In this document: in pieces, positions 1,229 to 25,715 of the stretch
Layout: the number at the start of each line of letters is the position of its first letter
Position numbering within the stretch: position 1 is the stretch's first letter
Assembly (NCBI GenBank): GCA_000217635.1
Contig: CP001817.1
Coordinates: forward strand, 330,001 to 362,000
DNA length: 32,000 nucleotides
Direction: 5' to 3'
Source of the DNA: Candidatus Saccharimonadota bacterium
GTDB taxonomy: Bacteria; Pseudomonadota; Gammaproteobacteria; Enterobacterales; Enterobacteriaceae
The notes under the pieces: model-generated
Told to the model about the DNA's origin: nothing
Databases searched by the model: none
What the model saw: only the letters and a program-made list of their open reading frames with translations
Program-made: the position numbers and the translations under genes

Positions 1229-2323
1229 ATGTTAGAATTTTCAATAATAAAAAAAAAGACAAAGCAGCTGAATAATAAAATAAAATATTTAACGAGGACT
1301 CTTGAATACAAAAAAAACAAAAAAGAAATCAAAAAAATTAATAATAAACTGAAATCGCCAGTTATCTGGAGAAATAATAAAACACTTCATTGTTTGCAAA
1401 AGGAAAAAATATTAAATAATTTTATAAAAAAATTAAAATATTTAATAGAAAATATACAAGATATAAAAGTATGGATAGATATCTTATCAAATGATTATGA
1501 TAATCATATCATATCTGAAATTAATATAAAATTTAAAATAATAGAGAAAATTATAAAAAAATTAGAAATCTATCAATTATTCTCGAATCATTATGATCAA
1601 AATAATTGTTATATTGATATTCAATCTGGATCTGGAGGATTAGAAGCTCAAGATTGGGCTAAAATGTTATTACGAATGTATATTAAATGGGCTGATATAA
1701 AAAATTTTTCTGCTGTTGTGATAGAAGAATCGATAGGAGAAATAGCAGGAATTAAATCCGCTACAATTAAAATAAAAGGAAAATATGCATTTGGATGGTG
1801 CCGCACAGAATCAGGTATACATCGATTAGTCCGTAAAAGTCCTTTTGATATGAGTAATAAAAGACATACATCATTTTGCTCAATATTTATTTATCCGGAA
1901 ATAAAAAAAAATAAAGAAATTATTCTTAATGCTTCTGATCTAAGAATTGATGTATACCGAGCATCTGGAGCAGGCGGACAACATGTCAATTGTACTGAAT
2001 CAGCAGTACGAATTACACATGTTCCTACAGGTATATCTACACAATGTCAAAGCAATCGCTCACAACATAAAAATAAAAATATGGCTTTAAAACAATTAAA
2101 GTCTAAACTTTATATATTAGAAAAAAGTAAAATAAATATAGAAAAGAAGAGAAAAAATAAAAATAAATTAGATATTGGATGGGGCAATCAAATTCGTTCA
2201 TATATATTAGATAATTCACTAATTAAAGATCTAAGAACTGGTATAGAGCAACATAATACTAAATCAATATTAGATGGTAATTTAAGTCAATTTATTGAAC
2301 AAAGCTTAAAATTGGGGTTATAA
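1229..2323 (+). CDS. prfB: Peptide chain release factor 2, encoded in a single frame with no programmed +1 frameshift
   Basis: 364-aa ORF carrying the RF2 signatures SPF (RKSPFD) and GGQ (RASGAGGQHVN). It is collinear with E. coli RF2 over its full length. Confidence 0.95.
   Translation: MLEFSIIKKKTKQLNNKIKYLTRTLEYKKNKKEIKKINNKLKSPVIWRNNKTLHCLQKEKILNNFIKKLKYLIENIQDIKVWIDILSNDYDNHIISEINIKFKIIEKIIKKLEIYQLFSNHYDQNNCYIDIQSGSGGLEAQDWAKMLLRMYIKWADIKNFSAVVIEESIGEIAGIKSATIKIKGKYAFGWCRTESGIHRLVRKSPFDMSNKRHTSFCSIFIYPEIKKNKEIILNASDLRIDVYRASGAGGQHVNCTESAVRITHVPTGISTQCQSNRSQHKNKNMALKQLKSKLYILEKSKINIEKKRKNKNKLDIGWGNQIRSYILDNSLIKDLRTGIEQHNTKSILDGNLSQFIEQSLKLGL
1294..1309 (+). other. Vestigial RF2 frameshift cassette: GAGG, 3 nt, then CTT GAA TAC at codon 25
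   Basis: Codons 23-27 read AGG ACT CTT GAA TAC. The E. coli site is AGG GGG TAT CTT TGA C at the same codon 25/26. The window sequence equals that cassette minus one T, so the UGA is gone. Confidence 0.6.
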
Positions 2324-2334
2324 AAATTAATAAT

Positions 2335-3888
2335 ATGCCTAATACAAAAAAATATGCTTTAATTAATAAAAAAAAAATTCTCACAGAAAATAATATAAGA
2401 AAAAAAAAATTAAAAAAATTATGCGATAACGGTTTTAATTTTCCAAATCTTTTTCATTGTAATAACACAGCAAAAAACATACTTTTATTATATAAAAAAT
2501 ATACAAAAAAAGAATTAAAAAAAATCAATGTTCAGATAAAAATCGCAGGACGCATTATAAATAAAAGAGTATTAGGGAAAGCATCTTTTTTTAAGATACA
2601 AGATTATGATTATGAAATTCAAATATATATTCAAAGTAATAATTTTAAAAAAGATTTTTATAAAGATTATATTCTTGAATTAGATTTAGGTGACATCATA
2701 AGTGTTGTAGGAACTGTTTTTAAAACTAATACACAAGAAATATCTATTTTTTGTTATAAAATAGAATTATTAACAAAAATTTTACATCCATTACCTGATA
2801 AATATCACGGTTTACAAGATCAAGAACTAAAATATAGAAAAAGATATTTAGACCTAATCGCTAACAATAAAATTAAAAAAATATTTAAAAGAAGATCAAA
2901 AATATTATCTGTCATTCGTATGTTTATGGAAAAAAAAGATTTTTTAGAAGTCGAAACACCTATGATTCATAGTATTCCAGGAGGAGCTAACGCAAAACCC
3001 TTTATTACATATCATAATACCTTTAATAAAAAAATGTATTTACGAGTAGCACCTGAATTATATTTAAAAAGATTGATTATTGGTGGTTTTAATAAAATAT
3101 TTGAAATTAATAGAAGTTTTCGAAATGAAGGAATTTCGTCTCGTCATAATCCGGAATTTACTATGATGGAAATATATATGGCATATAGTAATTATAAAGA
3201 TATGATGAAACTATTAATTAAATTATTAAAATTTATTACAAAAAAATTTTTAATACATCAAAAATTTATTATAATAATTATAAAATTAATTTTAAAAAAA
3301 ATTAAAACGATGACAATGATTGATGCTATTATATATTTTAATAAAAATATTAAAAAATCTGATTTAAAAAGTATTAATAATATCAAAAAAATAATGAATG
3401 ATTTAAACTTAAAAATACCATTAAATATTTCTTTAGGAGAAATGATTAATATAATTTTTGAAAAAACTACAGAAAAAAAAATAATAGAACCTACATTTAT
3501 TACTAATTATCCAATTGAAGTTTCTCCATTAGCAAAATCAAAATCTACTAAAAATCATATTGCAGAACGATTTGAATTTTTTTTATCAGGATATGAAATA
3601 GCTAATGGTTTTTCTGAATTAAACGATTCTAAAGAACAAAAAAAAAGATTTAAAAAACAAATAATAGAAAAAAACAACAAAAAAACTTCTGATATTAATT
3701 ATGATTACGATAAAGAATATATTTCAGCATTAGAATATGGATTACCACCAACATCAGGACTAGGTATTGGAATTGATCGGTTAATCATGATTTTTACTAA
3801 TCAAAAAAGTATTCGTGATGTGATTTTATTTCCAACGCTACGCTCGTTAAAAAAAACAGAAATAATCAAAATATTTAATATTTTATAG
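2335..3888 (+). CDS. lysS: Lysyl-tRNA synthetase, class II; contains an internal compensated frameshift at 3240-3301
   Basis: 517-aa ORF with conserved blocks LPDKYHGLQDQE, FLEVETPM, FRNEGIS.RHNPEFTMME and GLPPTSGLGIGIDRL. It follows prfB as in the E. coli prfB-lysS operon. Confidence 0.95.
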   Translation: MPNTKKYALINKKKILTENNIRKKKLKKLCDNGFNFPNLFHCNNTAKNILLLYKKYTKKELKKINVQIKIAGRIINKRVLGKASFFKIQDYDYEIQIYIQSNNFKKDFYKDYILELDLGDIISVVGTVFKTNTQEISIFCYKIELLTKILHPLPDKYHGLQDQELKYRKRYLDLIANNKIKKIFKRRSKILSVIRMFMEKKDFLEVETPMIHSIPGGANAKPFITYHNTFNKKMYLRVAPELYLKRLIIGGFNKIFEINRSFRNEGISSRHNPEFTMMEIYMAYSNYKDMMKLLIKLLKFITKKFLIHQKFIIIIIKLILKKIKTMTMIDAIIYFNKNIKKSDLKSINNIKKIMNDLNLKIPLNISLGEMINIIFEKTTEKKIIEPTFITNYPIEVSPLAKSKSTKNHIAERFEFFLSGYEIANGFSELNDSKEQKKRFKKQIIEKNNKKTSDINYDYDKEYISALEYGLPPTSGLGIGIDRLIMIFTNQKSIRDVILFPTLRSLKKTEIIKIFNIL

Positions 3889-3980
3889 AAAAAAATAAAT
3901 AAATATACATTTATTAAAAATAATTAATAAATATAATTAATCGTTAAACATTTTAAATTTTTAAAAATTTAGGAATATAC

Positions 3981-5228
3981 ATGTCAAAAATCAAAAACCT
4001 ACAAAAAGAAATGTTACGATATGAAAATATTACGTATTTAAAAAAAAATATGATACTCCTTTATGGTTATATAATGCTAATATTATTAAAAATCAAATTA
4101 AAAAAATTAAAAAAATTCGATAATATTCGGTTTGCACAAAAATCTTGCTCTAATATAAATATTTTAAAAATTATAAAATCATATGGAGTGAAAGTTGATG
4201 CTGTATCGTTAGGTGAAATCATTAGAGCTCTTACGGCGGGTTTTACATCTAAAAATAATGATCTTGTTTTTACCTCAGATATTTTAGAAGATAAAACACT
4301 TAAAAAAATTATTCAATATCATATTCCTGTAAATATTGGGTCACTTAATATGATAGAAAAAATCGGAAAAATTTCTCCAAAACATCCGGTTTGGCTTAGA
4401 ATTAACCCAAAATTTGGAGATGGTCATCATATTAAAACAAATACTGGAGGAGAAAACAGTAAACATGGAATTTGGGATATTAATAAAGCAATATCAGATC
4501 TTAAATATTATAATTTATCATTAATTGGATTACATATGCATATTGGGTCCGGAATTAATTTAGATAATATAAAAAAAATGTGTGATTCTATGATTCAATG
4601 CGCATTAAATATAAACCAAAAAATACAATTTATATCAGCTGGAGGGGGTTTAAATATACCTTATAAACCACATGAAAAAGAAATTAATTTAGAATTCTAT
4701 TATAATATGTGGAATAAAACACGAAATTTTATCTCATCCCAATTATCATGTCCTATTAAATTAGAAGTTGAACCGGGTCGTTTTATAGTAGCACAATCTG
4801 GAGTATTAATTACTCAAGTATGTGCTGTAAAGCAAATGGGAAATAATTGTTTTATTATTATTAATTCCGGATTTAATGATCTTATACGACCAATGCTATA
4901 CGGCAGTTATCATAAAATTTCTGTTATTCATCAACTTAATAAAATGCCTATTGTACAATCAACTACTGATTATATTATTGCAGGACCATTATGTGAATCA
5001 GGAGACTTGTTTACAACTAATCATGAGGGTTTATTATTAAAAAGAACTTTACCTACAGTTATTCCTGGAGATTATATTATTATTCATGATACCGGAGCAT
5101 ATGGAGCCTCTATGTCGTCAAATTATAATAGCCGACCTTTAATTCCTGAAATTTTATACCAAAACAATAATTTTTATACCATTAGAAAAAGACAAAAAAT
5201 AAAAGATCTAATTCAATTAGAATTATGA
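3981..5228 (+). CDS. lysA: Diaminopimelate decarboxylase; contains an internal compensated frameshift at 4040-4115
   Basis: 415-aa ORF with RFAQKSCSN, GVKVDAVSLGEI, NTGGENSKHGIW, EPGRFIVAQSGVLITQV and DTGAYGASMSSNYNSRPL. It ends in TGA at 5226-5228. Confidence 0.95.
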   Translation: MSKIKNLQKEMLRYENITYLKKNMILLYGYIMLILLKIKLKKLKKFDNIRFAQKSCSNINILKIIKSYGVKVDAVSLGEIIRALTAGFTSKNNDLVFTSDILEDKTLKKIIQYHIPVNIGSLNMIEKIGKISPKHPVWLRINPKFGDGHHIKTNTGGENSKHGIWDINKAISDLKYYNLSLIGLHMHIGSGINLDNIKKMCDSMIQCALNINQKIQFISAGGGLNIPYKPHEKEINLEFYYNMWNKTRNFISSQLSCPIKLEVEPGRFIVAQSGVLITQVCAVKQMGNNCFIIINSGFNDLIRPMLYGSYHKISVIHQLNKMPIVQSTTDYIIAGPLCESGDLFTTNHEGLLLKRTLPTVIPGDYIIIHDTGAYGASMSSNYNSRPLIPEILYQNNNFYTIRKRQKIKDLIQLEL

Positions 5229-5415
5229 TATAAAGAATTATCTTCTAAAATAAAATTTTTAAAAAAACTTAAAAACAATATTTATATTTTTAATATAAAA
5301 AGATTTTAAAAATAATTATTACTTATAAAAATATTCTATTTTTTTTGGATATATGAATAAATATCTTATACATATAAATTTTAAAAATTAAATTATACTT
5401 AATAAAATTAATACT

Positions 5416-6762
5416 ATGACAATTAAAAAAACAAAAAAAATTTATATAAAAACCTGGGGTTGTCAAATGAATCAACATGATTCTGATATCCTAATTAATA
5501 TTTTTAATAAAACTAAAAAATATAAAATTGTTAAAACCCCAGAAAATTCTAACATTTTAATTTTAAATACATGTTCAATTAGAGAAAAGGCACAAGAAAA
5601 ATTATTTCATCAATTAGGAAGATGGAAAAAATTAAAAGATAAAAATTCTAATATTATTATTGCGGTAGGAGGTTGCGTAGCTGCTCAAGAAGGTAAAAAA
5701 ATATATCAAAGAGCAAATTATATAAATATTATTTTTGGACCTAAAACAGTTCATAAGTTACCTGAATTAATAAAAAAAATATCACATAGTAATATCTGTA
5801 TTATTGATATCGATGACTCACCATTAAAAAAATTTAATTCTTTTTGTCCTCAATTTAATTCTGTAAAAAAAGTTTCTTCTTTTGTTACTATAATTGAAGG
5901 CTGTAATAAATTTTGTTCTTTTTGTATTGTACCTTATACAAGAGGGCGAGAAATTAGCAGACCATATGTTGATATTATAAGAGAAATAAAAGAATTATCT
6001 AACCTTGGTGTATGTGAAGTCATTTTATTAGGTCAAAATGTTAATTCATATTATTATAAAAAAAATAATCAATCTCCGTGCTCATTTTCAGATTTATTAC
6101 ATTTAATATCAGATATACCAAAAATTCAAAGAATAAGATATATTACTAGTCATCCTAAAGATTTTAGTGATGATATTATTAATGCATATAAAACTATTCC
6201 TAAACTAATGGATGCATTACATTTACCTGTTCAGTGCGGTTCAAATAAAATTTTAAAATTAATGAAGCGAGGATATACAACGCATGAATACGAAAATATA
6301 ATTAAAAAAATACGTAAAATACGCCCTAATATCAGTATCAGTTCAGATTTTATTGTTGGTTTTCCGGGAGAAACAAAAAAAGATTTTAATAAAACGTTAG
6401 ATTTTATTAAAAAAATTGATTTTGATTCTAGTTATAGTTTTATATACTCTGTACGCCCCGGAACAAGAGCTGCCAAATTAATTGATAATGTGCCATTAAA
6501 AGAAAAAAAAGAAAACCTCTTAAAACTACAAAAAAAATTAATCAACATGCTTTTCAATGGCGCAGAAGAATGTTTGGAACAATACAATCAGTATTGGTTG
6601 AAAAAAATACATAATAAAAATAATCACAAAGTATTAGGAAGAACAAAAAATAACAAAATTGTTTGTCTTCATGGAACTAATGAATTAATTGGGCATGTAG
6701 TTAACGTAAAAATAACAAATATTAATTATCATTCTTTTTTAAGAGGCGAAATTATTCTATAA
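5416..6762 (+). CDS. miaB: tRNA-i6A37 methylthiotransferase MiaB; contains an internal compensated frameshift at 6530-6607
   Basis: 448-aa ORF with KTWGCQMN, NTCSIREKAQEK, the radical-SAM motif CNKFCSFCIVP and SSDFIVGFPGET. Confidence 0.95.
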   Translation: MTIKKTKKIYIKTWGCQMNQHDSDILINIFNKTKKYKIVKTPENSNILILNTCSIREKAQEKLFHQLGRWKKLKDKNSNIIIAVGGCVAAQEGKKIYQRANYINIIFGPKTVHKLPELIKKISHSNICIIDIDDSPLKKFNSFCPQFNSVKKVSSFVTIIEGCNKFCSFCIVPYTRGREISRPYVDIIREIKELSNLGVCEVILLGQNVNSYYYKKNNQSPCSFSDLLHLISDIPKIQRIRYITSHPKDFSDDIINAYKTIPKLMDALHLPVQCGSNKILKLMKRGYTTHEYENIIKKIRKIRPNISISSDFIVGFPGETKKDFNKTLDFIKKIDFDSSYSFIYSVRPGTRAAKLIDNVPLKEKKENLLKLQKKLINMLFNGAEECLEQYNQYWLKKIHNKNNHKVLGRTKNNKIVCLHGTNELIGHVVNVKITNINYHSFLRGEIIL

Positions 6763-6846
6763 AATATAACTTTTAATAATGTTAATAAATTATTAATATA
6801 ACTTGTATTATTTTAACTTTATAATCATAAAAATTTTTATAAAACT

Positions 6847-7300
6847 ATGAAAATAAATATTCAAAAAGCTACGAAAATAAATGAACGAATTCCACATAAA
6901 AAAGATTTTACAAAATGGCTTTATTATATATTTTTTAATAAAAAAATAGAATTAACAATTCGTATTGTAACAATTAATGAAATTATATTATTAAATCATA
7001 CTTATAGAAATAAAAATATACCTACTAATGTATTATCATTTCCGATGAATAATATATATCTAGATAAAAATCATAAAAAATTATATTTAGGAGATATAGC
7101 TATCTGTAGCTCATATCTTAAAAAAGAAGCGTATCAATTTAAAAAAATGTTAAAGAACATTGGGCTCATTTAACTATACATGCGGCATTACATTTAATAA
7201 ATTATACACATAATACCTTAAAAAAACAAAAAAAATGGAAAAAAATAGAAAAAAAATTATGAAAAATTTAGGATATAATAACCCATATCAATGTTATTAA
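6847..7300 (+). pseudogene. ybeY: Endoribonuclease YbeY, split over three frames by two -1 lesions in poly(A) tracts
   Basis: Frame 1 (6847-7173) gives ...PTNVLSFP...LGDIAIC...KKEAYQFKK and then a stop. Frame -1 from 7146 gives NVKEHWAHLTIHAALHLINYTHNTLKKQKK, which holds the H-x3-H-x5-H metal site. A further -1 frame from 7235 gives MEKNRKKIMKNLGYNNPYQCY with a stop at 7298-7300. The junctions are at A7 7141-7147 and at A7/A8 7220-7235. Confidence 0.85.
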
Positions 7301-7436
7301 AGAACAATAAAAAAAATTTATAAAAATATTGTATATATTTTAAATATATAACATAAAAAAGTTTTGAAAATATAAATATCTTTTTATAAAAAGTTAATAT
7401 CAACAATCAAAAATCTAATTAATACGGTAATATATT

Positions 7437-9998
7437 ATGAATTTAGAATATAATCCTAAAAAAATTGAATCTTTTGTTCAACAATACTGGCGTAATAATA
7501 ATACATTTTCAGTATCAGAAAATTCAACAAAAAAAAAATATTTTTGCGTTCCTATGTTACCTTATCCGTCTGGAAATTTACATATGGGACATGTACGTAA
7601 TTATACTATCAGTGATGTAATAGCACGTTATCAAAGAATGTTAGGAAAAAATGTTCTTCAACCAATAGGGTGGGATGCATTTGGTCTGCCAGCCGAAGAA
7701 ACCGCAATAAAAAATAATATTTCACCATCTGAATGGACTTTATTAAATATAAAGACGATGAAGCATCAATTACAATCACTTGGTTTTAGTTACGATTGGA
7801 AAAGAGAACTGAATACATGTAATCCTTATTATTATAAATGGGAACAATGGTTTTTTATACAGCTATATAAAAAAAAACTAGTTTACAAGAAAAACACTCT
7901 GGTTAATTGGTGTCCTCACGATAAAACAGTGTTAGCAAATGAACAAGTACATCATGGAAAATGCTGGAGATGTAATACAAATGTTATTTTAAAAAAAATA
8001 CCTCAATGGTTTATGAAAATAACTAATTATGCTGAAGAATTATTACAAGATCTTAAAAAATTAAAAAATGGCCTAAAAAAAGTACTGCGAATGCAAAAAA
8101 ACTGGATTGGAAAATCTACTGGGTTACTAATTAAATGCAAAATTTACCATTCTAAAAAAAAAATAAAAATATACACCACAAAACCAAAAAATATAATGCA
8201 CATAACATTTTTTGCAATATCTATGTATCATTCTATTGTGCCTTTGCTGTGTAAAAAAAACAAAGAAATACATAATTTTTTAAATACATATAATAATATA
8301 AATATATCAAAAATGTATAAAAAGAATAAATATCTTGGAATAAATACAAATCATTTTATTATACATCCCGTTACTAATAAAAAAATACCATTATGGATTG
8401 CATTATATATTAAACATGATTATGCAACTGGAGCTATCATGGGTACTCCGGAATATGATAAAAATGATTTTCATTTTGCATCTTTCCATTCTTTACCAAT
8501 AAATATAAAAAATTTAACATATAAAAATATTGATATAAATGAAAAAAATAACAGCATTTTAAATGTTCATAAAGAAAATAAAGATTTATTAACCTCTAAT
8601 GATTTTAATAATACAAAAATACTATCAAATATTATTAAAATATTAATTAAAAAAAAAAAAGCAAAAAAATATATCTGTTATAAATTAAAAGATTGGAGCA
8701 TATCAAGACAAAGATACTGGGGCGCACCTATCCCTATCGTTTACACTAAAAAAGGAAAAATTATTCCTGTACCAGAAAAGAATTTACCAGTTATTTTACC
8801 TGATTATTCTTCTGTAAAAAATTATACCCAACCGCTTCAATTTCAAAAGAGTTGGTTATATACAGTAATTAATAAAGAAAATGTTATTCGAGAAACGGAT
8901 ACGTTTGATACATTTATAGAATCTTCATGGTATTATGCTCGCTATACGTGTCCAAATTTTACAAGCGGAATGATAGCTCCTGAGAAAGCAAAATATTGGC
9001 TTCCAGTTGATCAATACATTGGGGGTATTGAACACGCAGTCATGCATTTAATATATTTTAGATTTTATCATAAATTACTGCGAGATTTTGGTCTAGTGTC
9101 ATCCGATGAACCTGTAAAAAAATTAATTTGTCAAGGTATGGTTTTATCCGATGCATTTTATACTTATGATCATAATAAAAAAAAAATATGGATAAAACCG
9201 TCAGATATAAAAAATCATAAAAAATATTCTGATAAAAAAAATAAAAATAAAATTATATATGCGGGAAAAATTAAAATGTCAAAATCAAAAAATAATGGAA
9301 TTGATCCTCATATAATTATTAATAAATATGGAGCAGACACATTAAGATTATTTTTAATGTTTGCAGCTCCTATAGAATCAGCATTAGAATGGAATGATCA
9401 AAGTATTATAGGTATGTATAGATTTTTAAAAAAATTATGGACATTCACATATTCTCTAAGTTTATATTTAATTAAAATACCACTAAACATCCATGAACAA
9501 CATGATCATCATGATATTTTTATAATACTTAATAATACAATTAGTTATGTAACAGATGACATAAAAAGACGACATTCATTTAATACAGCTATAGCACATA
9601 TAATAAAATTATTTAATATAATTTTAAAATTACCTTGTCAAACTGATAAAAATAAAATAATTATTAAACAATCATTAGCGATTATATTAAAAATGTTATA
9701 TCCATTTACACCTCATATTTGTTTTATTTTATGGAAAGAAATATATGGAAAAGATGCAGATATAGATCAAGAATCATGGCCTATCACATATGAAATAAAA
9801 AAAAATATAATTTCACATCCATTTATTATTCAAATAAACGGAAAAAAAAAGAATATAATAAATATATCAAATATATATTCTAAAAAAGAAAAAATAGAAT
9901 TTGCTTTAAAAAATAAAAAAATTAAAAAATATTTAAAAAATAAAAATATAAAAAATACAATTTATATACATCAAAAATTAATTAACTTTGTTATATAA
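7437..9998 (+). CDS. leuS: Leucyl-tRNA synthetase; contains a 3-codon compensated frameshift at 8063-8081
   Basis: 853-aa ORF with HMGHVRNYTISDVIARYQRMLGKNVLQPIGWDAFGLPAE, the KMSKS loop (KMSKSKNNGIDP) and ETDTFDTFIESSWYYARY. Confidence 0.97.
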   Translation: MNLEYNPKKIESFVQQYWRNNNTFSVSENSTKKKYFCVPMLPYPSGNLHMGHVRNYTISDVIARYQRMLGKNVLQPIGWDAFGLPAEETAIKNNISPSEWTLLNIKTMKHQLQSLGFSYDWKRELNTCNPYYYKWEQWFFIQLYKKKLVYKKNTLVNWCPHDKTVLANEQVHHGKCWRCNTNVILKKIPQWFMKITNYAEELLQDLKKLKNGLKKVLRMQKNWIGKSTGLLIKCKIYHSKKKIKIYTTKPKNIMHITFFAISMYHSIVPLLCKKNKEIHNFLNTYNNINISKMYKKNKYLGINTNHFIIHPVTNKKIPLWIALYIKHDYATGAIMGTPEYDKNDFHFASFHSLPINIKNLTYKNIDINEKNNSILNVHKENKDLLTSNDFNNTKILSNIIKILIKKKKAKKYICYKLKDWSISRQRYWGAPIPIVYTKKGKIIPVPEKNLPVILPDYSSVKNYTQPLQFQKSWLYTVINKENVIRETDTFDTFIESSWYYARYTCPNFTSGMIAPEKAKYWLPVDQYIGGIEHAVMHLIYFRFYHKLLRDFGLVSSDEPVKKLICQGMVLSDAFYTYDHNKKKIWIKPSDIKNHKKYSDKKNKNKIIYAGKIKMSKSKNNGIDPHIIINKYGADTLRLFLMFAAPIESALEWNDQSIIGMYRFLKKLWTFTYSLSLYLIKIPLNIHEQHDHHDIFIILNNTISYVTDDIKRRHSFNTAIAHIIKLFNIILKLPCQTDKNKIIIKQSLAIILKMLYPFTPHICFILWKEIYGKDADIDQESWPITYEIKKNIISHPFIIQINGKKKNIINISNIYSKKEKIEFALKNKKIKKYLKNKNIKNTIYIHQKLINFVI

Positions 9999-10105
9999 TA
10001 AAAATTATATTATTTATTTTATATATTAAATAATTAAATTAAAAATCAATAAATTAATATGAATATTTGTTATATTAAATACTATAAAAATTTATAATAA
10101 AAATT

Positions 10106-11101
10106 ATGATTATTGAAACCTTTTATCTTAAAAAATATTTATCACAACATTATTTATCAAAAATATATATCATTATAGAAAAAGAAAATTTGTTTTTACA
10201 AGAAAATACTAAAATAATTTTAAAATACTTAAAAAGAAATAAATTTATACATAAAATTAAAATAATTGTTCATAATGATTCTGAATTTACTCAAATTATT
10301 CAATTATGTCAAAAAAAAGAAATATTTTTTAAAAAACTAATAATAATTGCAATAATTAAAGATAAAAAATTATCTTTACAAGCAAAATTATTTTTTAAAA
10401 ATAAAAATTTTTTAGATCAAGATATAATATGTATTTTTCAATATCCAAATTTAATATTTAATATAAAATATGAATTATTTTTTTATAAAAACATTAAAAA
10501 TAAAGTAGTTATTTTAAAAAATTCTATATTTAATATAAAAAATATACATACTTGGATTACTAATAAAATAAAAGAATATAAATTACATATAACAGAAAAT
10601 ATTATTAAAAATATAATATCAAAATATAAATATAATTTAAATAAAATTAATAATACATTAAAAATTTTTTCATTATTATATCCAAATACTAAAATTACTA
10701 GTTCTATCTTAGAATATCATTATAATAATTTTGAAACAAAAGAATCATATCATTGGATAAATTCTGTGATTCATAAAAAAAAAAATATATCTATACATAT
10801 ATTAAAAAAATTAAAAATACAAAAATATAATATAACAACATTACTACGTCATTATAAAAATTTTATATTTATAATTTTAAAAATTAAAGAAAAAAAAATT
10901 ACTGAAAAAAACTATAATCCTAAAGAAATATGTAATTATCCCATAAAATTTAACTTATTAAATATACTTGCAAATAAAAATAGTTTAATTAAAATTTATC
11001 AGGCAATAAAAATACTAAAATATATTGATTTTATTATCATAAATTATAAAAAAGAAACAATTTGGATATATTTAAAAATATTGTCTATATTATTTAATTA
11101 A
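10106..11101 (+). CDS. holA: DNA polymerase III delta subunit
   Basis: 331-aa ORF in the leuS-downstream position. Similarity to E. coli HolA is weak but collinear: YIIIEKENLFLQE vs YLLLGNDPLLLQE, IIQLCQKKEIFFKK vs IFSLCQAMSLFASR, HWINSVI vs HWVDALL. Confidence 0.75.
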   Translation: MIIETFYLKKYLSQHYLSKIYIIIEKENLFLQENTKIILKYLKRNKFIHKIKIIVHNDSEFTQIIQLCQKKEIFFKKLIIIAIIKDKKLSLQAKLFFKNKNFLDQDIICIFQYPNLIFNIKYELFFYKNIKNKVVILKNSIFNIKNIHTWITNKIKEYKLHITENIIKNIISKYKYNLNKINNTLKIFSLLYPNTKITSSILEYHYNNFETKESYHWINSVIHKKKNISIHILKKLKIQKYNITTLLRHYKNFIFIILKIKEKKITEKNYNPKEICNYPIKFNLLNILANKNSLIKIYQAIKILKYIDFIIINYKKETIWIYLKILSILFN

Positions 11102-11298
11102 ACATTTTATAAAAATAAAACAGTTATTATAATTTTTAATTCAAATTAATATCATTGTTTTTATATAAAATAAAAATTAAAAATAATATATTAATTGATA
11201 AAAAATATATTAAAAAATTTTATTAATAATAAATATTTAATTAAAATAAAAAAAATAAAAAAAAATTTATAATCTCTATATTGGTACAATAAAAACAT

Positions 11299-11538: not shown

Positions 11539-11581
11539 TTTAATTAAAGAAATTTAATAATTTTTATTATATTATAAAAAA

Positions 11582-13097: not shown

Positions 13098-13700
13098 ATG
13101 ACAATGATTACTTCTTTAATAATATTACAATTTGTAATTATGGATCCTTTAGGTAATTTACCAATTTTTATATCAATTCTAAAAAATACATCAGCTTCAC
13201 GTAGACGATTTATTATAATTAGAGAAATGATTATAGCATTAATATTTATGTTGTTATTTTTATTCCTAGGCGAAAAAATATTATCTGTATTAAATTTAAA
13301 AACAGAAATAGTATCAATATCTGGAGGTATTGTACTATTTTTAATCGCTATTCCAATGATATTTCCTAGTTTTAATCAAATTAGTAATAATAATGATCAA
13401 CAAGAAAAACAAAGCGAACCATTTTTAGTGCCTTTAGCTATTCCTTTAATTGCCGGTCCATCATTACTAGCAACATTAATATTATTATCTCACCAGTATG
13501 CTTCACATATGTGGTATCTTTTAATTTCTTTATTTATTTCATGGTTTATTTCTCTTTTTATACTACTATCTTCAAATTTATTTTTAAAATTATTAGGTAA
13601 AAAAGGAATAAATGCATTAGAACGTTTAATGGGTTTAGTATTAATTATGCTGTCAACTCAGATGTTTTTAAATGGAATTGGTAGTTGGTTTAAAATATAA
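13098..13700 (+). CDS. yhgN: MarC-family (UPF0056) inner membrane protein
   Basis: 200-aa ORF with IMDPLGNLPIF, SISGGI.LFLIA, PLAIPLIAGPS and GINALERLMGL. It is divergent from asd, as yhgN is in E. coli. Confidence 0.85.
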   Translation: MTMITSLIILQFVIMDPLGNLPIFISILKNTSASRRRFIIIREMIIALIFMLLFLFLGEKILSVLNLKTEIVSISGGIVLFLIAIPMIFPSFNQISNNNDQQEKQSEPFLVPLAIPLIAGPSLLATLILLSHQYASHMWYLLISLFISWFISLFILLSSNLFLKLLGKKGINALERLMGLVLIMLSTQMFLNGIGSWFKI

Positions 13701-16065: not shown

Positions 16066-16221
16066 ATAAAAAAAATATAAAAAAAATTTATATAAATATA
16101 ATTTTGATCATATATCATTTTTTTTCCATTATAAATATCTAAGTATTTTAAAAAAAATACATACTGTTTATATAGGTAATACATGACTCCTGAACTTTAG
16201 AAAAAAATAATTTTTAAAACA

Positions 16222-16243
16222 TGCAATAAGAATCATTATTGCA
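16222..16243. other. 8-bp perfect inverted repeat, TGCAATAA-gaatca-TTATTGCA, ending 7 nt before the mscS ATG
   Basis: Read directly. The arms are 16222-16229 and 16236-16243, with a 6-nt loop. Confidence 0.5.
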
Positions 16244-16249
16244 AGAAAA

Positions 16250-17214
16250 ATGGAAGAATTACATGTAGTGAATAAAATTAATCATGCAAGTTCTTGGTTG
16301 ACAACAAAACAACCAACATTATTATCGTATATAATTAATTTATCATCTGCTACTATTATTGTGGCAATGGGATTTTTTATTGGACAAATCATTGCCAGCG
16401 GAATACAAAAAATTTTATTAGCACGAAAAATCGATAATACAATTTCCGGATTTGTATCAACACTGGTGCGTTATATAATTATTATGTTTACATTTATTGC
16501 AGCATTAGGTCGTATGGGGGTGCAAACTAACTCAATCATTGCTATTTTAGGTGCTGCAGGCATGGCAATTGGACTAGCCTTACAAGGATCTTTATCAAAT
16601 TTTGCTGCCGGGGTATTATTAGTTATACTGCGCCCCCTTAAAACAGGAGAATATGTAAACCTCGGTAATGCAGCTGGCACCGTACAACATGTTCATATAT
16701 TCCATACAATGCTCAAAACATTTGATGGAAAAATAATTGTGATTCCAAATGGAAAAATTATAGCAGGAAATATTGTTAATTATTCTAGAGAACCAATGCG
16801 TCGAAATCAATTTACTATTAGTGTAGCTTATGATTCTGATGTAGATTTAGTAATTTCAGTATTAACTTCAATATTAAAAAATGATGAACGTATATTAAAA
16901 AAAACCTAAATATGTAGTTGGATTAAGTGAATTCACCCCATCATCTTTAAATTTTATTGTAAAATGTTGGAGCAATACAAAAGAATTAAATACAGTTTAT
17001 TGGGATTTAATGTTAAAATTTAAAAAAAACATTAGATCAAAATAATATTTTAATACCATGCCCACAAATGGATGTATATTTACATAAAAAAACAAATAAA
17101 ATTTTAAAAAATAATTCAAAAATTATTCAAAAAAATAAAATTTATAAAGTACAATTAAAATTTGGCGTAGATCAAAAAAATTCTACGCCATATAATTTAG
17201 ATACTATATTATAA
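16250..17214 (+). pseudogene. mscS: Small-conductance mechanosensitive channel MscS, split by two +1 lesions in A8 tracts
   Basis: Frame 1 (16250-16909) matches MscS to ...[12 protein letters not shown]. Frame +1 from 16905 gives [42 protein letters not shown] further +1 frame from 17029 gives TLDQNNILIPCPQMDVYL... The junctions are at A8 16897-16904 and A8 17022-17029. The last frame stays open to the TAA at 17212-17214, so the true C-terminus is uncertain. Confidence 0.85.
17163..17190. terminator. GC-rich stem-loop (9-bp perfect stem, 10-nt loop) between mscS and recC
   Basis: TGGCGTAGA (17163-17171) pairs with TCTACGCCA (17182-17190); the loop is tcaaaaaaat. It is one of very few GC-rich non-tRNA elements in the window. 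No clean T-run follows it. Confidence 0.4.
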
Positions 17215-17253
17215 TAAAATAATTTCTTTCAACTTTTATAATACTGGAATTAT

Positions 17254-20200
17254 ATGTTAACTATCCACCAATCTAATAAATTACAATATTTAATAGAAAA
17301 AATCTGTAAAAAAATTAAGTTTTATAAAAAAAAATTTTAGAAAAAAATATTTTTTTAATTGATAATAAAAATATTCAACAATGGTTGGATATAAAAATTT
17401 CAAGAAAAATGAATATAACTGCTAATATAGATTATATTAATTATAAATATTTTTTTATTAATTTAATTTATCGTACCCAAAAAATCAAAAAAAATCCTTT
17501 ATTTAATAAATACTACCTTACATGGAATTTAATGTCTATTATTCATGATGTACCAATTAATAAAAATAAAAAAATGTTTTTATATAAAAATTTTCAACTT
17601 TGTCTATATTTAGCTAAACTTTTTATCACTTATCTTTATTTAAAGCCACATTGGATTTATAAATGGGAAAATGAAAAAAATAATTTAACATTAAAAAAAT
17701 CTCATATATGGCAAAAAAATCTGTGGAATAAATTAATAAAAAAATTAAAAAATAATAGCTTTACTCAATTAATTAAAACATTTTATTTATCTATAAGAGA
17801 TAAAAAAATAAAAAATTTTCTACCATCAAATATATTCATTATATGTCTAGAAAAAAATATTCCACTAAATAATTTTATTTTATCTATAATTAGTGAATAT
17901 ACTATAATACATAAATATCAATATATTGTTACTAACAATATAGAAAAAAATCAGTTAAAAAAAATTTCTAAAAAAATTAATCTAAAAGAAAAGGGAAACT
18001 CTAAACATTTAAATATAAGAATTATAAAAAAATTTTTTTTATTAAAAAAAACCAAAATCCTTATTTACTACAACAATTACAGTCTGATATTTTTTACTCT
18101 AAAAATACAAAAAAATAAAAAAATCAAATATCATTTATATGATCGTTCTATTTCTATTCATCAATGCATTTCATTGTATCAAGAAGTGGAAATTTTATAT
18201 CAATATATAACTCAAAAAATGAATTCAGATACAAAATTAAAACCCCACAATATTTTAATTACAGCAAAAAATATAAAAATATATAGTCCATATATTGATT
18301 ATATATTCAAATATAAAAAAATAGTTATTTATTGCTTAATAATAAAAAAAGTACTACCCCATACCTTGAAGAAAGGATTTTTTTCAACAATAAAAAAACT
18401 ACTGACAATAAATAATAACTATTTAAAATATTCTTGGATTTTATCTATATTAGATAACAGTTATATACGAAAAAAATTCTCTATTCACTCTAAAGATATT
18501 TCTACAATATATTTTTGGATATTAGAACTTGGCATATATTGGGGTTTTGATAAAACTCATTTAAATAATTTATCTTTACCAAAAATTGAACAATATACTT
18601 GGGATTTTGCTATTAAAAAAATAATATCTGGATGTTTTTTTAATAAAAAAGATAATTCATGGAATAATATTTTTCCATTTAGTTTGTCACATCATCAAGG
18701 ATATATTTTATTAGGAAATTTTATTAAATTTATATTATGTTTAAAAAAATTATATAAAAATATTCATACAAAAAAGAAATTAAAAAGTTGGTTAAATATT
18801 CTCCCTAATATTATAAAAAATTTTTTTAAAGTTTCAAATAAAAATAAAAAATTTTTTTATCAATTAAAAAAAATTGGTATAATATTATTATATACGGAAT
18901 ACAAGAAAATTATTCAAAAAAAATTTCTATTAATGAAATTGTATATGAATTTTTTCAAAAAAAAATATTTTTTAAAAAAATATTTAAATATTATATCAGG
19001 AACATTAAATTTTTCAAAATTACAAAAAATTAAAAACATACCATTTAAAATGATTTGCATATTAGGTTGTACTAAAAAAATACGTATTGAAAAAAAAAAT
19101 GCATTAAACTTAATAAAAACCAATAAATTTAAATATGATAATAATCAAAAGATTTTTTTTAACACAATAATGTCTGCAAAAAATTATTTATATTGCAGTT
19201 ATGTATTTAATGACAAAAATCAAAATATTAAAAATAGTTCATCTCTTTTTATAGATAACTTATTAATTTATATTCAAAAAAAATTTTATTATATTACTTA
19301 TAGTATAAATAATAAAATTAAAAAAAATAATAATATTTTAAAATATATTTTTCATAATCATTTAAAAACTGTTAAAAAAAATAAAACAAATAAAAAAATT
19401 TTATTATGTAACTATAAAAAAATTAATTTTTTTTATCTAAAAATAGAATTAAAAAATTTAATTCAATTTTGGAAAAATCCTATTAATTATTTTTTTAATA
19501 AAACTTTAAAAATTAAAATAAATTTAAATGAAAATGACACTCTTTTAAAAAATGAAATATTTTCAGTTGGTTTCTTAGAAAAATATAAAATAAAAAAAAA
19601 TATTATCATTTTTACTTTCTCAAAAAAAAACAAAAAGATATTTTTATATTATCAAAATACAGGAAAAATACCATATGGAACTATTGGAAAAATATTTTGG
19701 AATAACCAAAAGAAAAAAATAAAAAAACTAGTAAATCGCATTCATAAAAATCGAAATCAACCTAAAAAAATAAAATTCAAATTAAAAATACAGGAATATC
19801 AAATATCTGGAAAATTATCGGAAATTAATCATATAGGTTTAATTCGTTGGACTGTAACAAAAATAAATTATAATAATATTATTTCTTTATGGTTAGAGCA
19901 TCTTGTATATTGTGCATTAGATTATAAAAAAAAAAGTATTTTATTAAGTATTGACGATAAAATATTAGAATTTTCTTCTATAAAAAAATCAAAAGCATTA
20001 TTTTATTTAAAAAAATATATTCAAGGTTATCGAATGGGATTAAAAAAACCAATATTATTTTTAAAATCTGGGATTAATTGGTTAAATTATACTTATATAC
20101 ATAAAAAATCAAATTCAAAAAATATAGCAATAAAAAAATTTTTAGAAACATGGAATGGAAATTTCCAATATGACGGAGAAAAAAATAATATATATGTACA

Positions 20201-20309
20201 AAAAATAATACCAAAAATAAATGAAAAATATATTAAAAAAATATGTAACACATGTAAATATTGGTATTTACCAGTATTAAAAAATTACACAATTAAACAA
20301 TCAATTTAA
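17254..20309 (+). pseudogene. recC: Exodeoxyribonuclease V gamma subunit RecC; N-terminal frameshift at an A9 tract plus internal compensated shifts
   Basis: The ATG at 17254 gives MLTIHQSNKLQYLIEKICKKIKFYKKKF and then a stop (E. coli MLRVYHSNRLDVLEALMEF...). The -1 frame continues ILEKNIFLIDNKNIQQWLDIKISRKMNITANID into the 974-aa ORF at 17385-20309. That ORF is collinear with RecC (FNK..L.W.LM, WQ..LW..L, SISIHQC, YSPYI, LWLEHLVYCA). The junction is at A9 17326-17334. Confidence 0.85.
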
Positions 20310-20328
20310 AAATTTTTATAAATAAAAT

Positions 20329-23300
20329 ATGCAATACATAAAATATGATGAATTTAAATTTCCTAGTCCAGATATTACTTTAATTGAAGCTTCTGCAGGA
20401 ACCGGAAAAACGTTTTCCATTATAATATTATATTTACGCTTATTAATTAATAGTGGATTAAAAAAAAAATATAAACGCTCTATATCATCTAAAAATATTC
20501 TTATCGTAACATTTACTGAAGCATCTAAAAATGAATTACAAAAAAGATTATATTTAGGAATTACACAATTATATTCCGCTTGTATAAATAAAAAAACAAA
20601 AGTAGATTACATAAAAAATATTTTTCATGATATACAAGATTATATTTTAGTACAAAAGATATTAAAAAAATTAAAAATAATACAGATAATATATCTGTAT
20701 TCACATTTCATGGTTTTTTTGGTCTATATTAAATGAATATAAATTTTTTTATAAAGAAAAAATTCCTGAAAACATTATTAAAAATATGTATCCAATAAAA
20801 CTACGTGCAATACAAAATTTTTGGAGAAATAATATTTATTATTTTTCTCAAGATGTAGCTGCGATTTTTATAAAAAAATGGTCGGATCCTCAAAAATTAC
20901 TTGAATATTTATACAAATGGCTAGATAACTCACATCTTCAAATATATCAAAAAAAAATTGAAATAAAAACAATTGAACAAAAACATATAAAATTAATTAA
21001 TCAAATAAAAAATCTTAAAAATATATGGAATCAGGAAAAAAATAATATTTTTTTATTATTTTCACAATTAAAAATTAATAAAAAAATATATAATCAAAAA
21101 AATTTAAAAATATGGTATGAACGAATTCAATCATGGACAACAAAAAAAACATATAATTATAAATTTCCAAATATTTTAAAATATTTTAGTTTAAAAAAAA
21201 TAAAAAATCATGTCAAAAATCATACGAAATTACGATATCATTTTTTTATCAAGTAGATATATTTTATGATCTATTTATATCATTAGATCAATTATATATT
21301 TCTTTTGCATTAGTTAATACCTTAAAAGCTATTAAAAATGAAAAAAAAATAAAAAATGGACTTGATTTTAATGATATTACAAAAATATTTTTAAAACAAA
21401 TTCAGTGTAAATCATCGAAAATAAAGAAAATAATCAAAAAAAATATCCAATTACTATTATTGATGAATTTCAAGATATCGATAGCATGCAATATGAAATT
21501 TTTTATCAAATTTATAGAAAATCAAAAAAAGAATCATTAATTTTATTTGGCGATCCTAAACAATCAATATATAGTTTTCGTAATGCTAACATATTTTATT
21601 ATTTTAAATTAAAAAAAATTAAAAATATTATTTCTTAAAAAAAAACTTTCGTTCTTCTCATAATATTATTGAAGCTATTAATATTTTATTTAAAAATATA
21701 AAAAAACCTTTCTTATTTAAAGACATCAGATTTAAAAAATCAAAAAAATATATCAATAATAAAAAAATGAATTTTTCTATAAACAATATCCCTCAATCTG
21801 CATTAAAATTCTATCTATATCCAAAAAAATAAGCACAATAGAAAATTATTATCAATGGATATCAAAAAAATGTGCAAATAATATTTCTTTATGGTTATTT
21901 TCAGAAAAAATAAAAATATTACAATTACTTTACGAAATAATATCTCACGTAACATTCGTCCTCAAGATATTGCGATATTAGTAAAAAATAAATATGAAGC
22001 CAAGTATATAATTCAAGCTCTCAAAAAACTAGATATACCAGCAATTTATACATCTCATATTGAAGATGTTTTTAAATGTCTTGAAACAAAAGAAATAATA
22101 TGGATTCTAGATTCCATATTACACCCATTAGATAAAAAAAAATTTCAAAAAATATTAATTACTCGAATATTAAATAAAAACATTAATGAAATTTATGAAA
22201 TTAATAAAAAAAAAGAAAAATATAATAATTTAATGAAACAAATAATAAAATATCTAAATATCTGGAATAAATACGGACTTTTTAATGTTATTGAAAAAAT
22301 AATTATCGACTTTAATATTTCTAAAAAAAATAACTCTAACTTAGAAAATAATATAAATATAAGAATATTTTATTATTAAGAGATGTTTTAATAAAAAAAC
22401 AAAAAAAATATTAAATAAATTCTTATTATTATCATGGTTAAAAAATAAGTTCTTAAAAAGTAAAGAACAAAAAAATATAAAAAATATCAAAAAAAATCCT
22501 GATGAAACATTATTTGTTAATAATGTTAATATTATTACTATTTATAAATCGAAAGGTTTAGAATACCCTATAGTTTGGATACCATTTTTTAGCAATTTTT
22601 ATAAAAAAAAGATAAAACATTTTATTGTAGAAAAAATATAAAAAATATTAGATTTAAGTAATAATAAAATAAACCAAAAATTATCTGAAGAAGAAAGATT
22701 ATCCGAGGATTTGCGGTTATTATATGTTGCAATTACACGTAGTATATTGCATTGTAGTATTGGGATAGCACCAATAATAAAAAGAAGATTCACAATAAAA
22801 AAACAGATACCAAAAACAGATTTATATCAAAGTGCATTAGGATATTTATTAAAACAAAAAAAAAAAAGTAGTTATGAAGATTTAAAAATATCTCTATACA
22901 ATATACAAAAAAAAAATGTCATTGAAATCTCTGAAAGAGAGGTGTGCTTAACAACAAAAACAAGAGAATATCCAAAATTAGAAAGTATTCAAAAAATTCA
23001 TGAAATTCATAAAACAAGAAACATATTACATCCATGGAAAAGAATTAGTTTTTCGAAATTAAATAAGAAAAATACAAAAAAAAATATAAATTATAATTTA
23101 AATATTATTAATAATTTTACAGAAAATAAAAAAAATAATTCTAAAAAAGTATTCCTTTATGGAGCTGAATATGGAATTTTTTTACATAATATTTTAAAAA
23201 ATATTAATTTCTCGAAACCAGAAAATATAAAAGAAAAAATAAAAAATTTTAATTATTTGTCTTTATCTACAAGTTTAATAAATAAAATAGATAAATTAAT

Positions 23301-23859
23301 TAATACAATGATATTCACGTTACTAAAAAATTTTAAAATTTCATTAATTCAATTAAATTCTACAGAATATACACAAGAAATGAATTTTACACTTCCAATA
23401 AAAAAATATATTAACTTTAATATTATAAATTTTTACATTAAAAAATATGATGATATATCTGCATTATGTCCTGATTTATCATTGTATAAAATCTCCGGAA
23501 TTTTAACAGGTAGTATTGATTTAATTTTTAAATGGAAAAATAAATTTTATTTTATAGATTATAAATCCAATTGGTTGGGATCAGATAACTTTTCTTATAG
23601 TAATAAAAAAATAAAATTAGAAATAATAAAACATCGTTATGATTTACAATATCAAATTTATACTTTAGCTATACATCGTTATCTTAAAAATCACGTTAAA
23701 AATTATAGTTATAAAAAAATTTTGGTGGAACTTTTTATATTTTTTTTAAGAGCGTTCGAAAAAAAAGGAAAGAATTCTGGAATATTTTTTAAAAAACCGT
23801 CTTATCTATTAATTAATAAATTAGATTATTTATTTAACGGAATATTATATAATGATTAA
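20329..23859 (+). pseudogene. recB: Exodeoxyribonuclease V beta subunit RecB, heavily frameshifted: about 9 consecutive -1 lesions plus an in-frame TAA
   Basis: Homology to RecB can be followed across frames. The blocks are IEASAGTGKTFSI, VTFTEASKNELQ, VFTFHGFF, WSILNEY...NFWRNN..., GLDFNDI, ITIIDEFQDIDSMQYEIF, LILFGDPKQSIYSFRNANIF, NFRSSHNIIEAIN, IRPQDIAILVKN, IYKSKGLEYPIVWIPF, ERLSEDLRLLYVAITRS and GSIDLIFKW...FIDYKSNWLG...HRYDLQYQIYTLAIHRYL. ORF-track entries 20329-20736, 20786-21256, 21891-22379 and 22711-23859 are fragments of this gene. Confidence 0.9.
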
Positions 23860-25715
23860 TCAAAAAAAATATTTTTTAAAAAAATTACAAAAAGCACAAG
23901 AACAAGGAAAGATACATAATATTGATTTTTATTGTTGTACATTATTAATTCCAAATGCACCTTCAGAAATTAAATTAATTATATTATATTTAAGTTATGC
24001 GATTCATTGGGGACATAGTTGTTTACCAGTCAAATTATTTAAAAAAAAATTTTTTCTTGAAAAAAAAGATAGCTTTATTAAATATTTATGGAGTTCTATT
24101 ATTCATACTAAATCTTGGTTTCAATGTATACTGAAAAGTAAATTTTGTAGCAATGGGTCTATTGTTACACCTTTAGTGTTTCAAAAAGAAAAAATTTACC
24201 TGTATAGATATTGGAATTCTGAAAGAAAAATTATTAACTTTATTATTCATCATCAAGAAATAACAGACCAAAAAATAAAAAAATATAGAATATTATTTAA
24301 AAAATATTGCACCAAAAATATAGATAAAGTTCAAAAAATTGCTATTGGTGTTATGTTATTAAATAACATCTCTTTTATTTTAGGAGGTCCGGGTACCGGT
24401 AAAACTAGTATAATCACCTATCTAATTTTATTATTAATAAAATCTACAAAAAAAAATATTAATATACAATTAACAGCTCCAACCGGAAAAGCTGCATCTC
24501 GAATTACTGAAGTTGTATATCAAAAATTATCTACTAAAAATCTTACTGTAAAAGAAAAAAGGTTTTTACCTAAAAAAGGAATCACACTTCATCGTTTATT
24601 TAATATCCAAAAAAACACTAATGAAATACATTCATATAAATATATTAAAAAAAAAATTTCTAATATCGATTTATTAATTATTGATGAAGCATCTATGATC
24701 GATTTATATATGATGGAAAATATTTCTAATATTATCCAAAAAAAACAAAAATAATTTTTTTAGGTGATATTAATCAATTACCACCTATAGAAGTTGGTTC
24801 TGTTATAAAAGAACTATGCAAAAAAGCAAATAATAAATATAGTAAAGAATTTTCTCAAAAATTATCATTAATAACTCAAAAAAAAATTCAAAATAACACA
24901 TTAGAAAATCATTTTAATATAAATGATACAATGATTGTTTTAAAAAAAAGTATAGATTTAAAAAAAATCAGGAATTGGAATTTTTTCTACACTATTAGAA
25001 AAAGAAAAGTATATTAATATCTCTTCTATCATTAAAGAAAAAAATTCAGATATAATCTGGAAAAAATTAAAAACAAAAAATCATTATTTTTGTATGTTAA
25101 AAGAAATTCTAAATATATATCAACATTATTGGATTTATGTGCAAAATAAAAAAAACAAACCAAAAAAATTATTGATTATTTTAATAAATATAGAATTTTA
25201 TGTGCATTATTAAATGGTCCATTTGGGATTAACATGATCAATAATTATATAGAAAAAAATATGTATCATTCAAATAAAAACCCAGCCCAAAAAAAATATA
25301 TCCCTGGTACCATGGAAAACCAATTGTCATCACAAAAAATAATAATTCATTAAAATTATTTAATGGAGAAATTGGTATATGTTTATTAAATAAGCAAAAT
25401 AAATTAAAAATTTTTTTTTTATCTCATAAAAGAAAAATAAAAACCATTGATCCATCATTAATAACCCATTTTGAAGTAGCATGGTCCACTACAATTCATA
25501 AAGCTCAAGGATCTGAATTTTCTTATGTAACTTTAATTCTTCCAAACTACATCTCCAAAATATTATCAAAAGAATTAATTTATACAGGAATTACTCGAGC
25601 TAAAAAAAAAATTACAATATATTCTAATTTTACTATTTTAAAAAATACTATTAATTTTAAAAAAAAGAGATATTCTGGATTATATTCAAATATTATAAAA
25701 AATAAAAAAAATTAA
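23852..25715 (+). pseudogene. recD: Exodeoxyribonuclease V alpha subunit RecD, split by four homopolymer frameshifts
   Basis: The start overlaps the recB stop (ATGATTAA). The blocks are ILGGPGTGKTS, LTAPTGKAASR, TLHRL and LLIIDEASMID, then a stop at 24752. The -1 frame gives IIFLGDINQLPPIEVGSV. The next frames give SGIGIFSTLLEKE, then YRILCALLNGPFGIN, then PWYHGKPIVITKNN..LKLFNGEIGI...AWSTTIHKAQGSEF..V.LILP...ELIYTGITRAKKK, with a stop at 25713-25715. Confidence 0.9.

Follow-up and report, generated by a model that had tools for sequence, protein, structure and literature searches.

The window analysed here, 32,000 nucleotides (nt) of contig CP001817.1, comes from Buchnera aphidicola BCt (Cinara tujafilina), the products of its fbaA, lysS and cyoB being 100% identical to BCt proteins. 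It is part of a chromosome of 444,925 base pairs, and the record dates from 2011. About 45 frame-changing events are found in it, nearly all of them in A/T runs and overwhelmingly contractions, and they strike genes that include lysS, lysA, miaB, ybeY, leuS, mscS, recC, recB, recD and cyoD. We hold it to be likely, with a probability of roughly 0.7, that most of these lesions are uncorrected 454 undercalls together with frame-restoring edits made at the wrong tract, that is, a property of the deposited record. This reading is built on the lesions themselves, their confinement to BCt, an ancestral coding signal that is intact behind the broken genes, the match with the submitters' list of coding sequences (CDS), a one-base deletion in prfB and a missing tail of long runs.

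Three independently assembled Buchnera genomes, with an FbaA protein identity to BCt of 80–83%, served as sisters. Sister A is NCBI GCA_900128735.1 (L081, L085), sister B the Logan assembly of SRR21069242 (L082, L086, L088) and sister C the Logan assembly of SRR33594963 (L084, L089). The sister proteins were aligned to the window with a protein-to-DNA dynamic-programming aligner that allows frameshifts, and each event was checked at the nucleotide level; cyoD was compared with sister B only. Terminal signals in lysS, nusB, tusA and cyoB were left uncounted because the C-termini are variable. An apparent frameshift at the 3' end of pgk was rejected as well, being a substitution that creates an earlier stop. 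An exact look-up of the window's fbaA gave no hit, an independent assembly of BCt was not found in the collections searched, and the 90% clusters of fbaA, miaB and leuS contain the NCBI record alone.

The features are the following, in positions of the window and with length changes relative to the sisters; ORF stands for open reading frame.

1294–1309, plus strand: prfB recoding site, GAGGACTCTTGAATAC in the window, in which the programmed +1 site CTT TGA lacks one T.
3240–3301, plus strand: lysS compensated set, A7 at 3240–46 (−1) and A8 at 3294–3301 (−2, as compared to 9–10 nt in the sisters).
4040–4106, plus strand: lysA compensated pair, A9 at 4040–48 (−1, 10 nt in the three sisters) and A7 at 4100–06 (+1, A6 in the sisters).
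6530–6620, plus strand: miaB compensated set, A8 at 6530–37 (−1, A9 in sisters B and C) and a complex net +1 at about 6601–20.
6847–7297, plus strand: ybeY, two uncompensated −1 events, A7 at 7141–47 (A8 in the sisters) and A8 at 7228–35 (A9 in the sisters).
8063–8081, plus strand: leuS mini-pair, A6 at 8063–68 (−1) and A7 at 8075–81 (+1), on either side of TGGCCT.
16250–17151, plus strand: mscS, two uncompensated +1 events, A8 at 16897–904 and A8 at 17022–29 (A7 in the sisters); the ORF ends at 16909.
17317–20309, plus strand: recC, −4 at A9 17326–34 near the sisters' start, four compensated sets, ORF otherwise open.
18026–51 with 18109–23, 18315–21 with 18378–91, and 18866–73 with 18950–80, plus strand: the three recC sets in minus-then-plus order.
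19592–600 (−2) with about 19637 (−1), plus strand: the recC set in the opposite order.
20329–23859, plus strand: recB, 14–16 frame events, mostly −1 in A or T runs of 6–8.
23852–25709, plus strand: recD, five −1 steps at about 24732–45, 24942–49, 24960–67, 25148–68 and 25253–80.
28173–28494, minus strand: cyoD compensated pair, −1 at T7 (plus-strand A7, 28418–24) and +1 at T9 (plus-strand A9, 28362–70).

The length changes are mostly of 1–2 nt within homopolymer runs, with undercalls dominating and the flanks conserved. The lesioned runs are 6–9 nt long, and the number of lesions per gene is between 2 and 16. An earlier, sequence-only reading of the window had placed the lesions in A or T runs, and this is true of nearly all of them; recB at about 22365–80, recC at about 19637 and the complex second event in miaB do not lie in long runs, and the T3 run of prfB is a further exception. 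The contraction bias described in that reading is real, and stronger than claimed. Many of the apparent downstream +1 events are −2 as compared to the sisters (lysS 3294–3301, recC 18109–23, recC 19592–600 and recB 22631–45). The two contractions in ybeY and the two expansions in mscS were found where it had put them. Its nine contractions in recB correspond to nine net −1 frame rotations, with local compensated sets also at 22603–45 and 23713–47. Examples of −1 events in recB are 20664–70, 20714–20, 21436–43, 21823–29, 22401–08 and 22603–10; there is also a −4 at 21611–25, and the local compensations lie at 22631–45 and 23740–47. The supposed +1 in recD at 24960–67 is better read as part of two −1 events (24942–49 and 24960–67), which brings the gene to its five −1 steps.

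In lysS, lysA, miaB and leuS there is a short stretch each whose off-frame translation matches the sisters strongly and whose annotated frame does not. In lysS, 15–18 codons are off-frame, and their off-frame translation FNTSKIYYNNYKINF scores 53–59 against the sisters, the annotated frame −5. In miaB 24–26 codons are scrambled, with an off-frame score of 116–120 as compared to −4 to −7 for the annotated frame, and in lysA 19 codons, the TPLWLYN motif included. The leuS mini-pair, which appears only at a frameshift penalty of 8, turns the sisters' KKWP into KNGL; the WP is presumably within a motif conserved in bacterial LeuRS. The LysS of the window is also longer than that of the sisters, 517 as compared to 504–511 amino acids, and its C-terminal extension (3824–3890) starts near an A8 run, but the alignment there is too variable for a frameshift call. 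The compensated pairs named in the sequence-only reading, in lysS, lysA, miaB, leuS, recC (18044–18115) and recB (23713–47), are all present, but recC has four sets in addition to its N-terminal −4. In total recC has nine frame events, and its ORF of 966–974 amino acids stays open.

That reading had also seen no uncompensated lesion in cyoA–E, which does not hold for cyoD, a gene beyond the range (1229–25715) that it covered: after its compensated pair follows an uncompensated +1 at 28264–69 (A5 to A6), and the frame continues into cyoE. A minus-strand ORF of 405 amino acids (27277–28494) thereby joins the first 75 or so codons of cyoD to cyoE. In sister B the two are separate, overlapping genes, and the submitters annotated a cyoE of 306 amino acids only.

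The excess of lesions is confined to BCt. With the same aligner and settings, about 22 kb of the window gave about 40 frame events. The comparison of sisters A and B gave one in 19.4 kb, and that of A and C one in 11.9 kb besides a doubtful pair; the number of lesions in the window is far above chance or method noise. Nine of nine compensated sets are on the BCt branch, for which the probability is (1/3)^9 = 5e-5 with three branches equally long. Nearly all of the uncompensated lesions are on the BCt branch too. No sister lineage has a compensated set in the same genes with the same aligner. Published whole Buchnera genomes have 1–18 homopolymeric frameshifts, and the AT-rich BCc has 3 (PMC3164680 Table 1).

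The coding signal behind the broken genes is intact. Once the frame is corrected, not a single stop interrupts the 3,219 codons of ybeY, mscS, recC, recB and recD, in which 7–9% of random substitutions would create one. The BCt branch is 0.157 for recB (0.177 and 0.195 for the sisters), 0.138 for recC (0.176 and 0.205), 0.146 for ybeY and 0.021 for mscS, and the BCt branches of the broken genes are thus not longer than those of sisters with intact genes. Identity by codon position follows the order 2 > 1 > 3, as in intact genes; at positions 1, 2 and 3 it is 0.786, 0.855 and 0.687 in recB, and 0.967, 0.987 and 0.717 in mscS. Substitutions and indels in endosymbionts have been counted as 114:34 in intergenic regions, or about 0.3 indels per substitution (PMC3268670), and as 185:24 and 51:16 genome-wide (PMC3890641), which gives a range of about 0.13–0.3. 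By our own arithmetic, some 34 indels at about 0.3 per substitution should be accompanied by about 110 substitutions, and thus by 8–10 new stops, and none was seen. The frame-corrected broken genes are free of signs of relaxation. The corrected frame of mscS has a protein identity of 96% to sister A with an ordinary third-position identity of 0.72. The 96% raised the possibility of a chimera or contaminant, which was rejected since the third positions are like those of the neighbouring genes. Across this Buchnera clade, MscS protein identity is 92–96%, as compared to 81–87% for FbaA and Pgk; to judge from these sequences, this indicates unusually strong amino-acid constraint rather than contamination.

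The distribution of run lengths points in the same direction as the lesions. The G+C content of the window is 20.8%, and A/T runs are densely packed. Runs of at least 11 nt make up 3 of the 292 runs of at least 7 nt in the window, as compared to 65 of 1,046 in the sisters (p = 1e-4), and there are 13 window runs of length 10. Sister runs of 11–13 nt match shortened, frame-breaking runs in the window. A systematic undercalling of every long run was considered and rejected, as about 12–25% of the runs are affected and there is no saturation. BCt was presumably a 454 project. The same laboratory produced the SCc genome (2011) from 454 data only, with Sanger sequencing for contig joins only (PMC3213167), and sequenced C. 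tujafilina DNA with 454 FLX and Titanium (PMC4122931). 454 has been reported to be unreliable in the poly(A) regions of Buchnera, where correction by Illumina or Sanger sequencing is needed (PMC3890641).

The sorting of lesions by gene follows the submitters' CDS list. The submitters' accessions (AEH) were recovered by exact-sequence look-up of the window proteins: prfB (AEH39858), miaB (AEH39861), ybeY (AEH39862, 108 amino acids), leuS (AEH39863), tusA (AEH39864), asd (AEH39865), pgk (AEH39867), mscS (AEH39869, 219 amino acids), recC (AEH39870, 966 amino acids, start ATG at 17409) and nusB (AEH39871); AEH proteins exist for lysS and lysA too. For holA, recB and recD the look-up found no AEH protein, only later RefSeq fragment calls, and judging from the accessions these three were not treated as CDS by the submitters. 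The compensated sets of lysS, lysA, miaB, leuS and recC are thus in genes with AEH proteins, while recB and recD, which have none, keep uncompensated lesions. The ORF of holA (10106–11101) is intact, with 331 amino acids, and colinear with the sisters; it has 12% G+C and 53.8 bits against an NCBIfam cutoff of 80, and is without an AEH accession. Counted per run, there are 24 lesions in 126 runs of dispensable or broken genes as compared to 3 in 82 runs of kept genes (p = 0.001), about four times rarer in the latter.

The events in recC are arranged so that the ORF is open, whereas its obligate partners recB and recD are shattered. If recC had decayed neutrally, the chance of its staying open would be of the order of 1e-7 (a hand estimate from the measured stop density), and neutral decay can therefore not give an open recC beside a shattered recB and recD. 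We know of no basis for selection on RecC alone.

In the window, prfB is a contiguous ORF of 364 amino acids coding for RF2. The sisters A, B and C all keep GAGGAnTCTTTGA at this place (L085, L086, L089), the canonical programmed +1 site of CUU UGA with an upstream Shine-Dalgarno-like element. The window has GAGGACTCTTGAA, in which CTT TGA has become CTT GA with exactly one T fewer, and BCt is the sole lineage of the four in this respect. The GAGGA element and the CTT are retained, but the in-frame UGA after CUU is absent, and with one T lost prfB needs no frameshift in the BCt record. A pyrosequencing miscall is not expected in a run as short as T3, and the missing T is due either to a frame-restoring edit or to a rare loss in nature. 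Editing would fit, but is not thereby proven.

The order within the compensated sets was said in the sequence-only reading to be always the same, the opposite order never having been seen. This is not the case, as recC 19592–19640 is reversed, but 8 of 9 sets in the genes with a preserved ORF are minus-then-plus (p = 0.034). Pairs within recB were excluded from this count, since the rare plus event there has minus events on either side. Stop density was tried as the cause of the order and rejected: the alternative frames have equal densities (0.102 stops per codon for +1 and 0.107 for +2), and the ORF-preserving run pairs number 307 and 261. In 6 of 8 sets the shifted frame meets its first stop at most 15 nt after the second change (p = 0.056), a place that someone wishing to lengthen a truncated ORF would choose. 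The compensated sets are too frequent to be unnoticed coincidences, so that a directed restoration of the frames must be assumed, and the findings point to a curator or algorithm, not to natural selection, as its source.

The course of events may have been as follows. A pyrosequencing assembly would have under-called the long A/T runs and left about 3–5 length errors per kb in the most AT-rich genes. During finishing, the frames of genes regarded as CDS would have been restored, but by altering the wrong run, typically the last one before the premature stop. Such an edit would leave a compensated pair with 4–30 scrambled codons between the two sites. This step could cover lysS, lysA, miaB, leuS, cyoD and the four recC sets, and the +1 site of prfB may have been "repaired" in the same manner. 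The remaining genes, recB, recD, ybeY and mscS, would have been accepted as pseudogenes or truncated genes with their raw errors kept.

Several points weigh against this explanation. Both the sequencing platform and the act of editing are inferred. The genes ybeY and mscS were annotated as CDS and yet left truncated, which frame restoration does not explain. The A5 to A6 change in cyoD and the events in recB at about 22365–80 and in recC at about 19637 are outside long runs and atypical of 454 miscalls, and two +1 events among the 4–5 runs that mscS has are odd under any model. The order and distance-to-stop statistics are borderline only. The gene holA is free of lesions though it has no AEH protein, but with zero lesions in 8 runs (P(0) = 0.18) it is underpowered as an uncurated control. 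Single frameshifts are also present in the sisters, in recD of sister B at an A13 run (L082, about 14160) and in sister C in ybeY at an A10 run (L084, about 2203) and as a frame change in recC (about 13100–13200). All three genes are among those broken in the window, and the two sisters were assembled independently from Illumina-era data. In each gene, one or two of the BCt lesions may be genuine; they may also be the reason why the submitters did not correct it.

Some of these points speak for a real and recent decay, in which a burst of contractions inactivated recB, recD, ybeY and mscS, natural compensation saved recC and the essential genes, and the prfB site was lost naturally. In Buchnera, genes are known to be inactivated chiefly by homopolymeric frameshifts, which often strike one and the same gene independently (PMC3164680); the sisters have single poly(A) frameshifts in ybeY, recC and recD. 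The per-run enrichment in dispensable genes also fits, as does, with low power, the lesion-free holA. We nevertheless consider such decay unlikely. It needs an at least 20-fold excess specific to BCt without a longer substitution branch, and some 34 indels without any new stop in the 3,219 codons. Furthermore, recC would have been under selection while recB and recD were dead, no sister has a compensated set, the runs of at least 11 nt would still be missing, and chance would have to account for the polarity, the prfB deletion and the position of the second change just before the stop. The sequence-only reading had argued for real mutations sorted by selection. The enrichment in dispensable genes is real, but the sorting tracks the submitters' CDS list and the excess is confined to BCt. 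A very recent, lineage-specific burst of poly(A/T) contraction, in which recB, recD, ybeY and mscS were broken up before substitutions had time to build up, selection kept recC open, the compensations were ordered 5' to 3' and the autoregulatory frameshift of RF2 was lost, seems to us improbable, and somewhat more so than decay stated in general terms.

Two further explanations are very unlikely. The lesioned genes could be functional through RNA polymerase slippage at poly(A) runs, with both frames available, as the sequence-only reading had proposed. One frameshifted Buchnera gene is reported to be rescued by slippage (cited in PMC3164680), and insertions during transcription in Buchnera concentrate in A/T runs and rise with their length, the right direction for a −1 lesion (PMC5574713). 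But recB, recC and recD would need 5–16 independent correct slips per transcript in runs of only 6–9 nt, which rules against the proposal, and the mscS +1 events would need RNA deletions, which are rare in runs (PMC5574713). The same transcriptome-wide study found no restored reading frame, and slippage leaves the restriction to BCt unexplained. Purely random, uncurated sequencing errors, with the compensated pairs as unnoticed coincidences, are just as hard to believe, although the contraction bias and the missing tail of long runs fit pyrosequencing. Against them stand the fourfold lower rate per run in the kept genes, the estimate of 1e-7 for an open recC, and the implausibility of a miscall in the T3 of prfB. 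Taking the raw per-run rates in the broken genes (some 0.17 for −1, some 0.02 for +1), we estimate by hand that chance would give about 0.4 open pairs in the 14 kept genes, as compared to at least 5 observed. The argument that random error would not respect dispensability accordingly holds against uncurated error only. The evidence favours undercalls with frame-restoring edits, which the sequence-only reading had itself named as its alternative, under-calling followed by frame restoration at the wrong tract.

In comparison with known systems, the window is like 454 homopolymer error in AT-rich endosymbiont assemblies in that the indels are in A/T runs and mostly undercalls of 1–2 nt, the long tail is cut, the coding signal is intact and one record is affected. 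It is unlike them in that the lesions are uneven and concentrated in genes not kept as full-length CDS, and the compensated sets in the kept genes imply an extra, directed editing step. Genuine homopolymeric-frameshift pseudogenes in Buchnera have been described by Degnan et al. 2011 (PMC3164680) and, reportedly, by Moran et al. 2009. The window superficially resembles such pseudogenes in its single-base poly(A) indels, the conserved flanks and the repeated hitting of dispensable genes. In the known pseudogenes, however, the lesions are single or few in each gene and number 1–18 per genome, whereas the window has 5–16 per gene and about 45 in 32 kb. The relaxed constraint expected of pseudogenes with many lesions, in the form of extra substitutions, stops and deletions, is absent. 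Tamas et al. 2008, as cited in PMC3164680 and PMC5574713, reportedly described endosymbiont genes whose frameshifts are rescued when transcription slips at poly(A) tracts. The poly(A) lesions are alike, and the −1 direction fits the insertion bias of the polymerase, but a rescued gene would be expected to have a run of about 9–10 nt or more and a single restoring slip, as compared to runs of 6–9 nt and 2–16 lesions per gene here; with multiple lesions per gene slippage rescue becomes arithmetically negligible. The pattern of the window resembles pyrosequencing homopolymer error combined with ORF-guided finishing, and is not a new biological mechanism.

If most of the lesions are artefacts, LysS, LysA, MiaB, LeuS, CyoD, RecC and RF2 are misreported in the BCt reference; the annotated versions of these proteins are probably partly wrong. 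The organism itself probably has intact recB, recD, ybeY and mscS genes, and their "loss" would then be a miscalled gene content. Studies of gene loss and metabolic complementation in Lachninae symbioses have drawn on BCt repeatedly and would take over the errors, and genome-wide scans for recoding or pseudogenes that include the record would inherit them. The practical value of the result is a warning about the BCt reference record. If the lesions were real, they would represent an exceptional burst of slippage mutations, compensated in an ordered way and of genuine interest, but this is not what the evidence favours.

The genes and gene order given in the sequence-only reading, from prfB through recD and cyoE–A, could be confirmed. 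The window starts with ygfZ on the minus strand (6–944), where a frame change was looked for and none was seen, followed by prfB, lysS, lysA, miaB, ybeY, leuS, holA, tusA, asd (minus strand), yhgN, pgk, fbaA and mscS. After mscS come recC, recB, recD, nusB and tusE, and then cyoE-D-C-B-A on the minus strand. In sister A, polA (L085, 187–2846) is called as three ORFs that correspond to the 5'–3' exonuclease, 3'–5' exonuclease and polymerase domains, and in sister B it is called as two ORFs.

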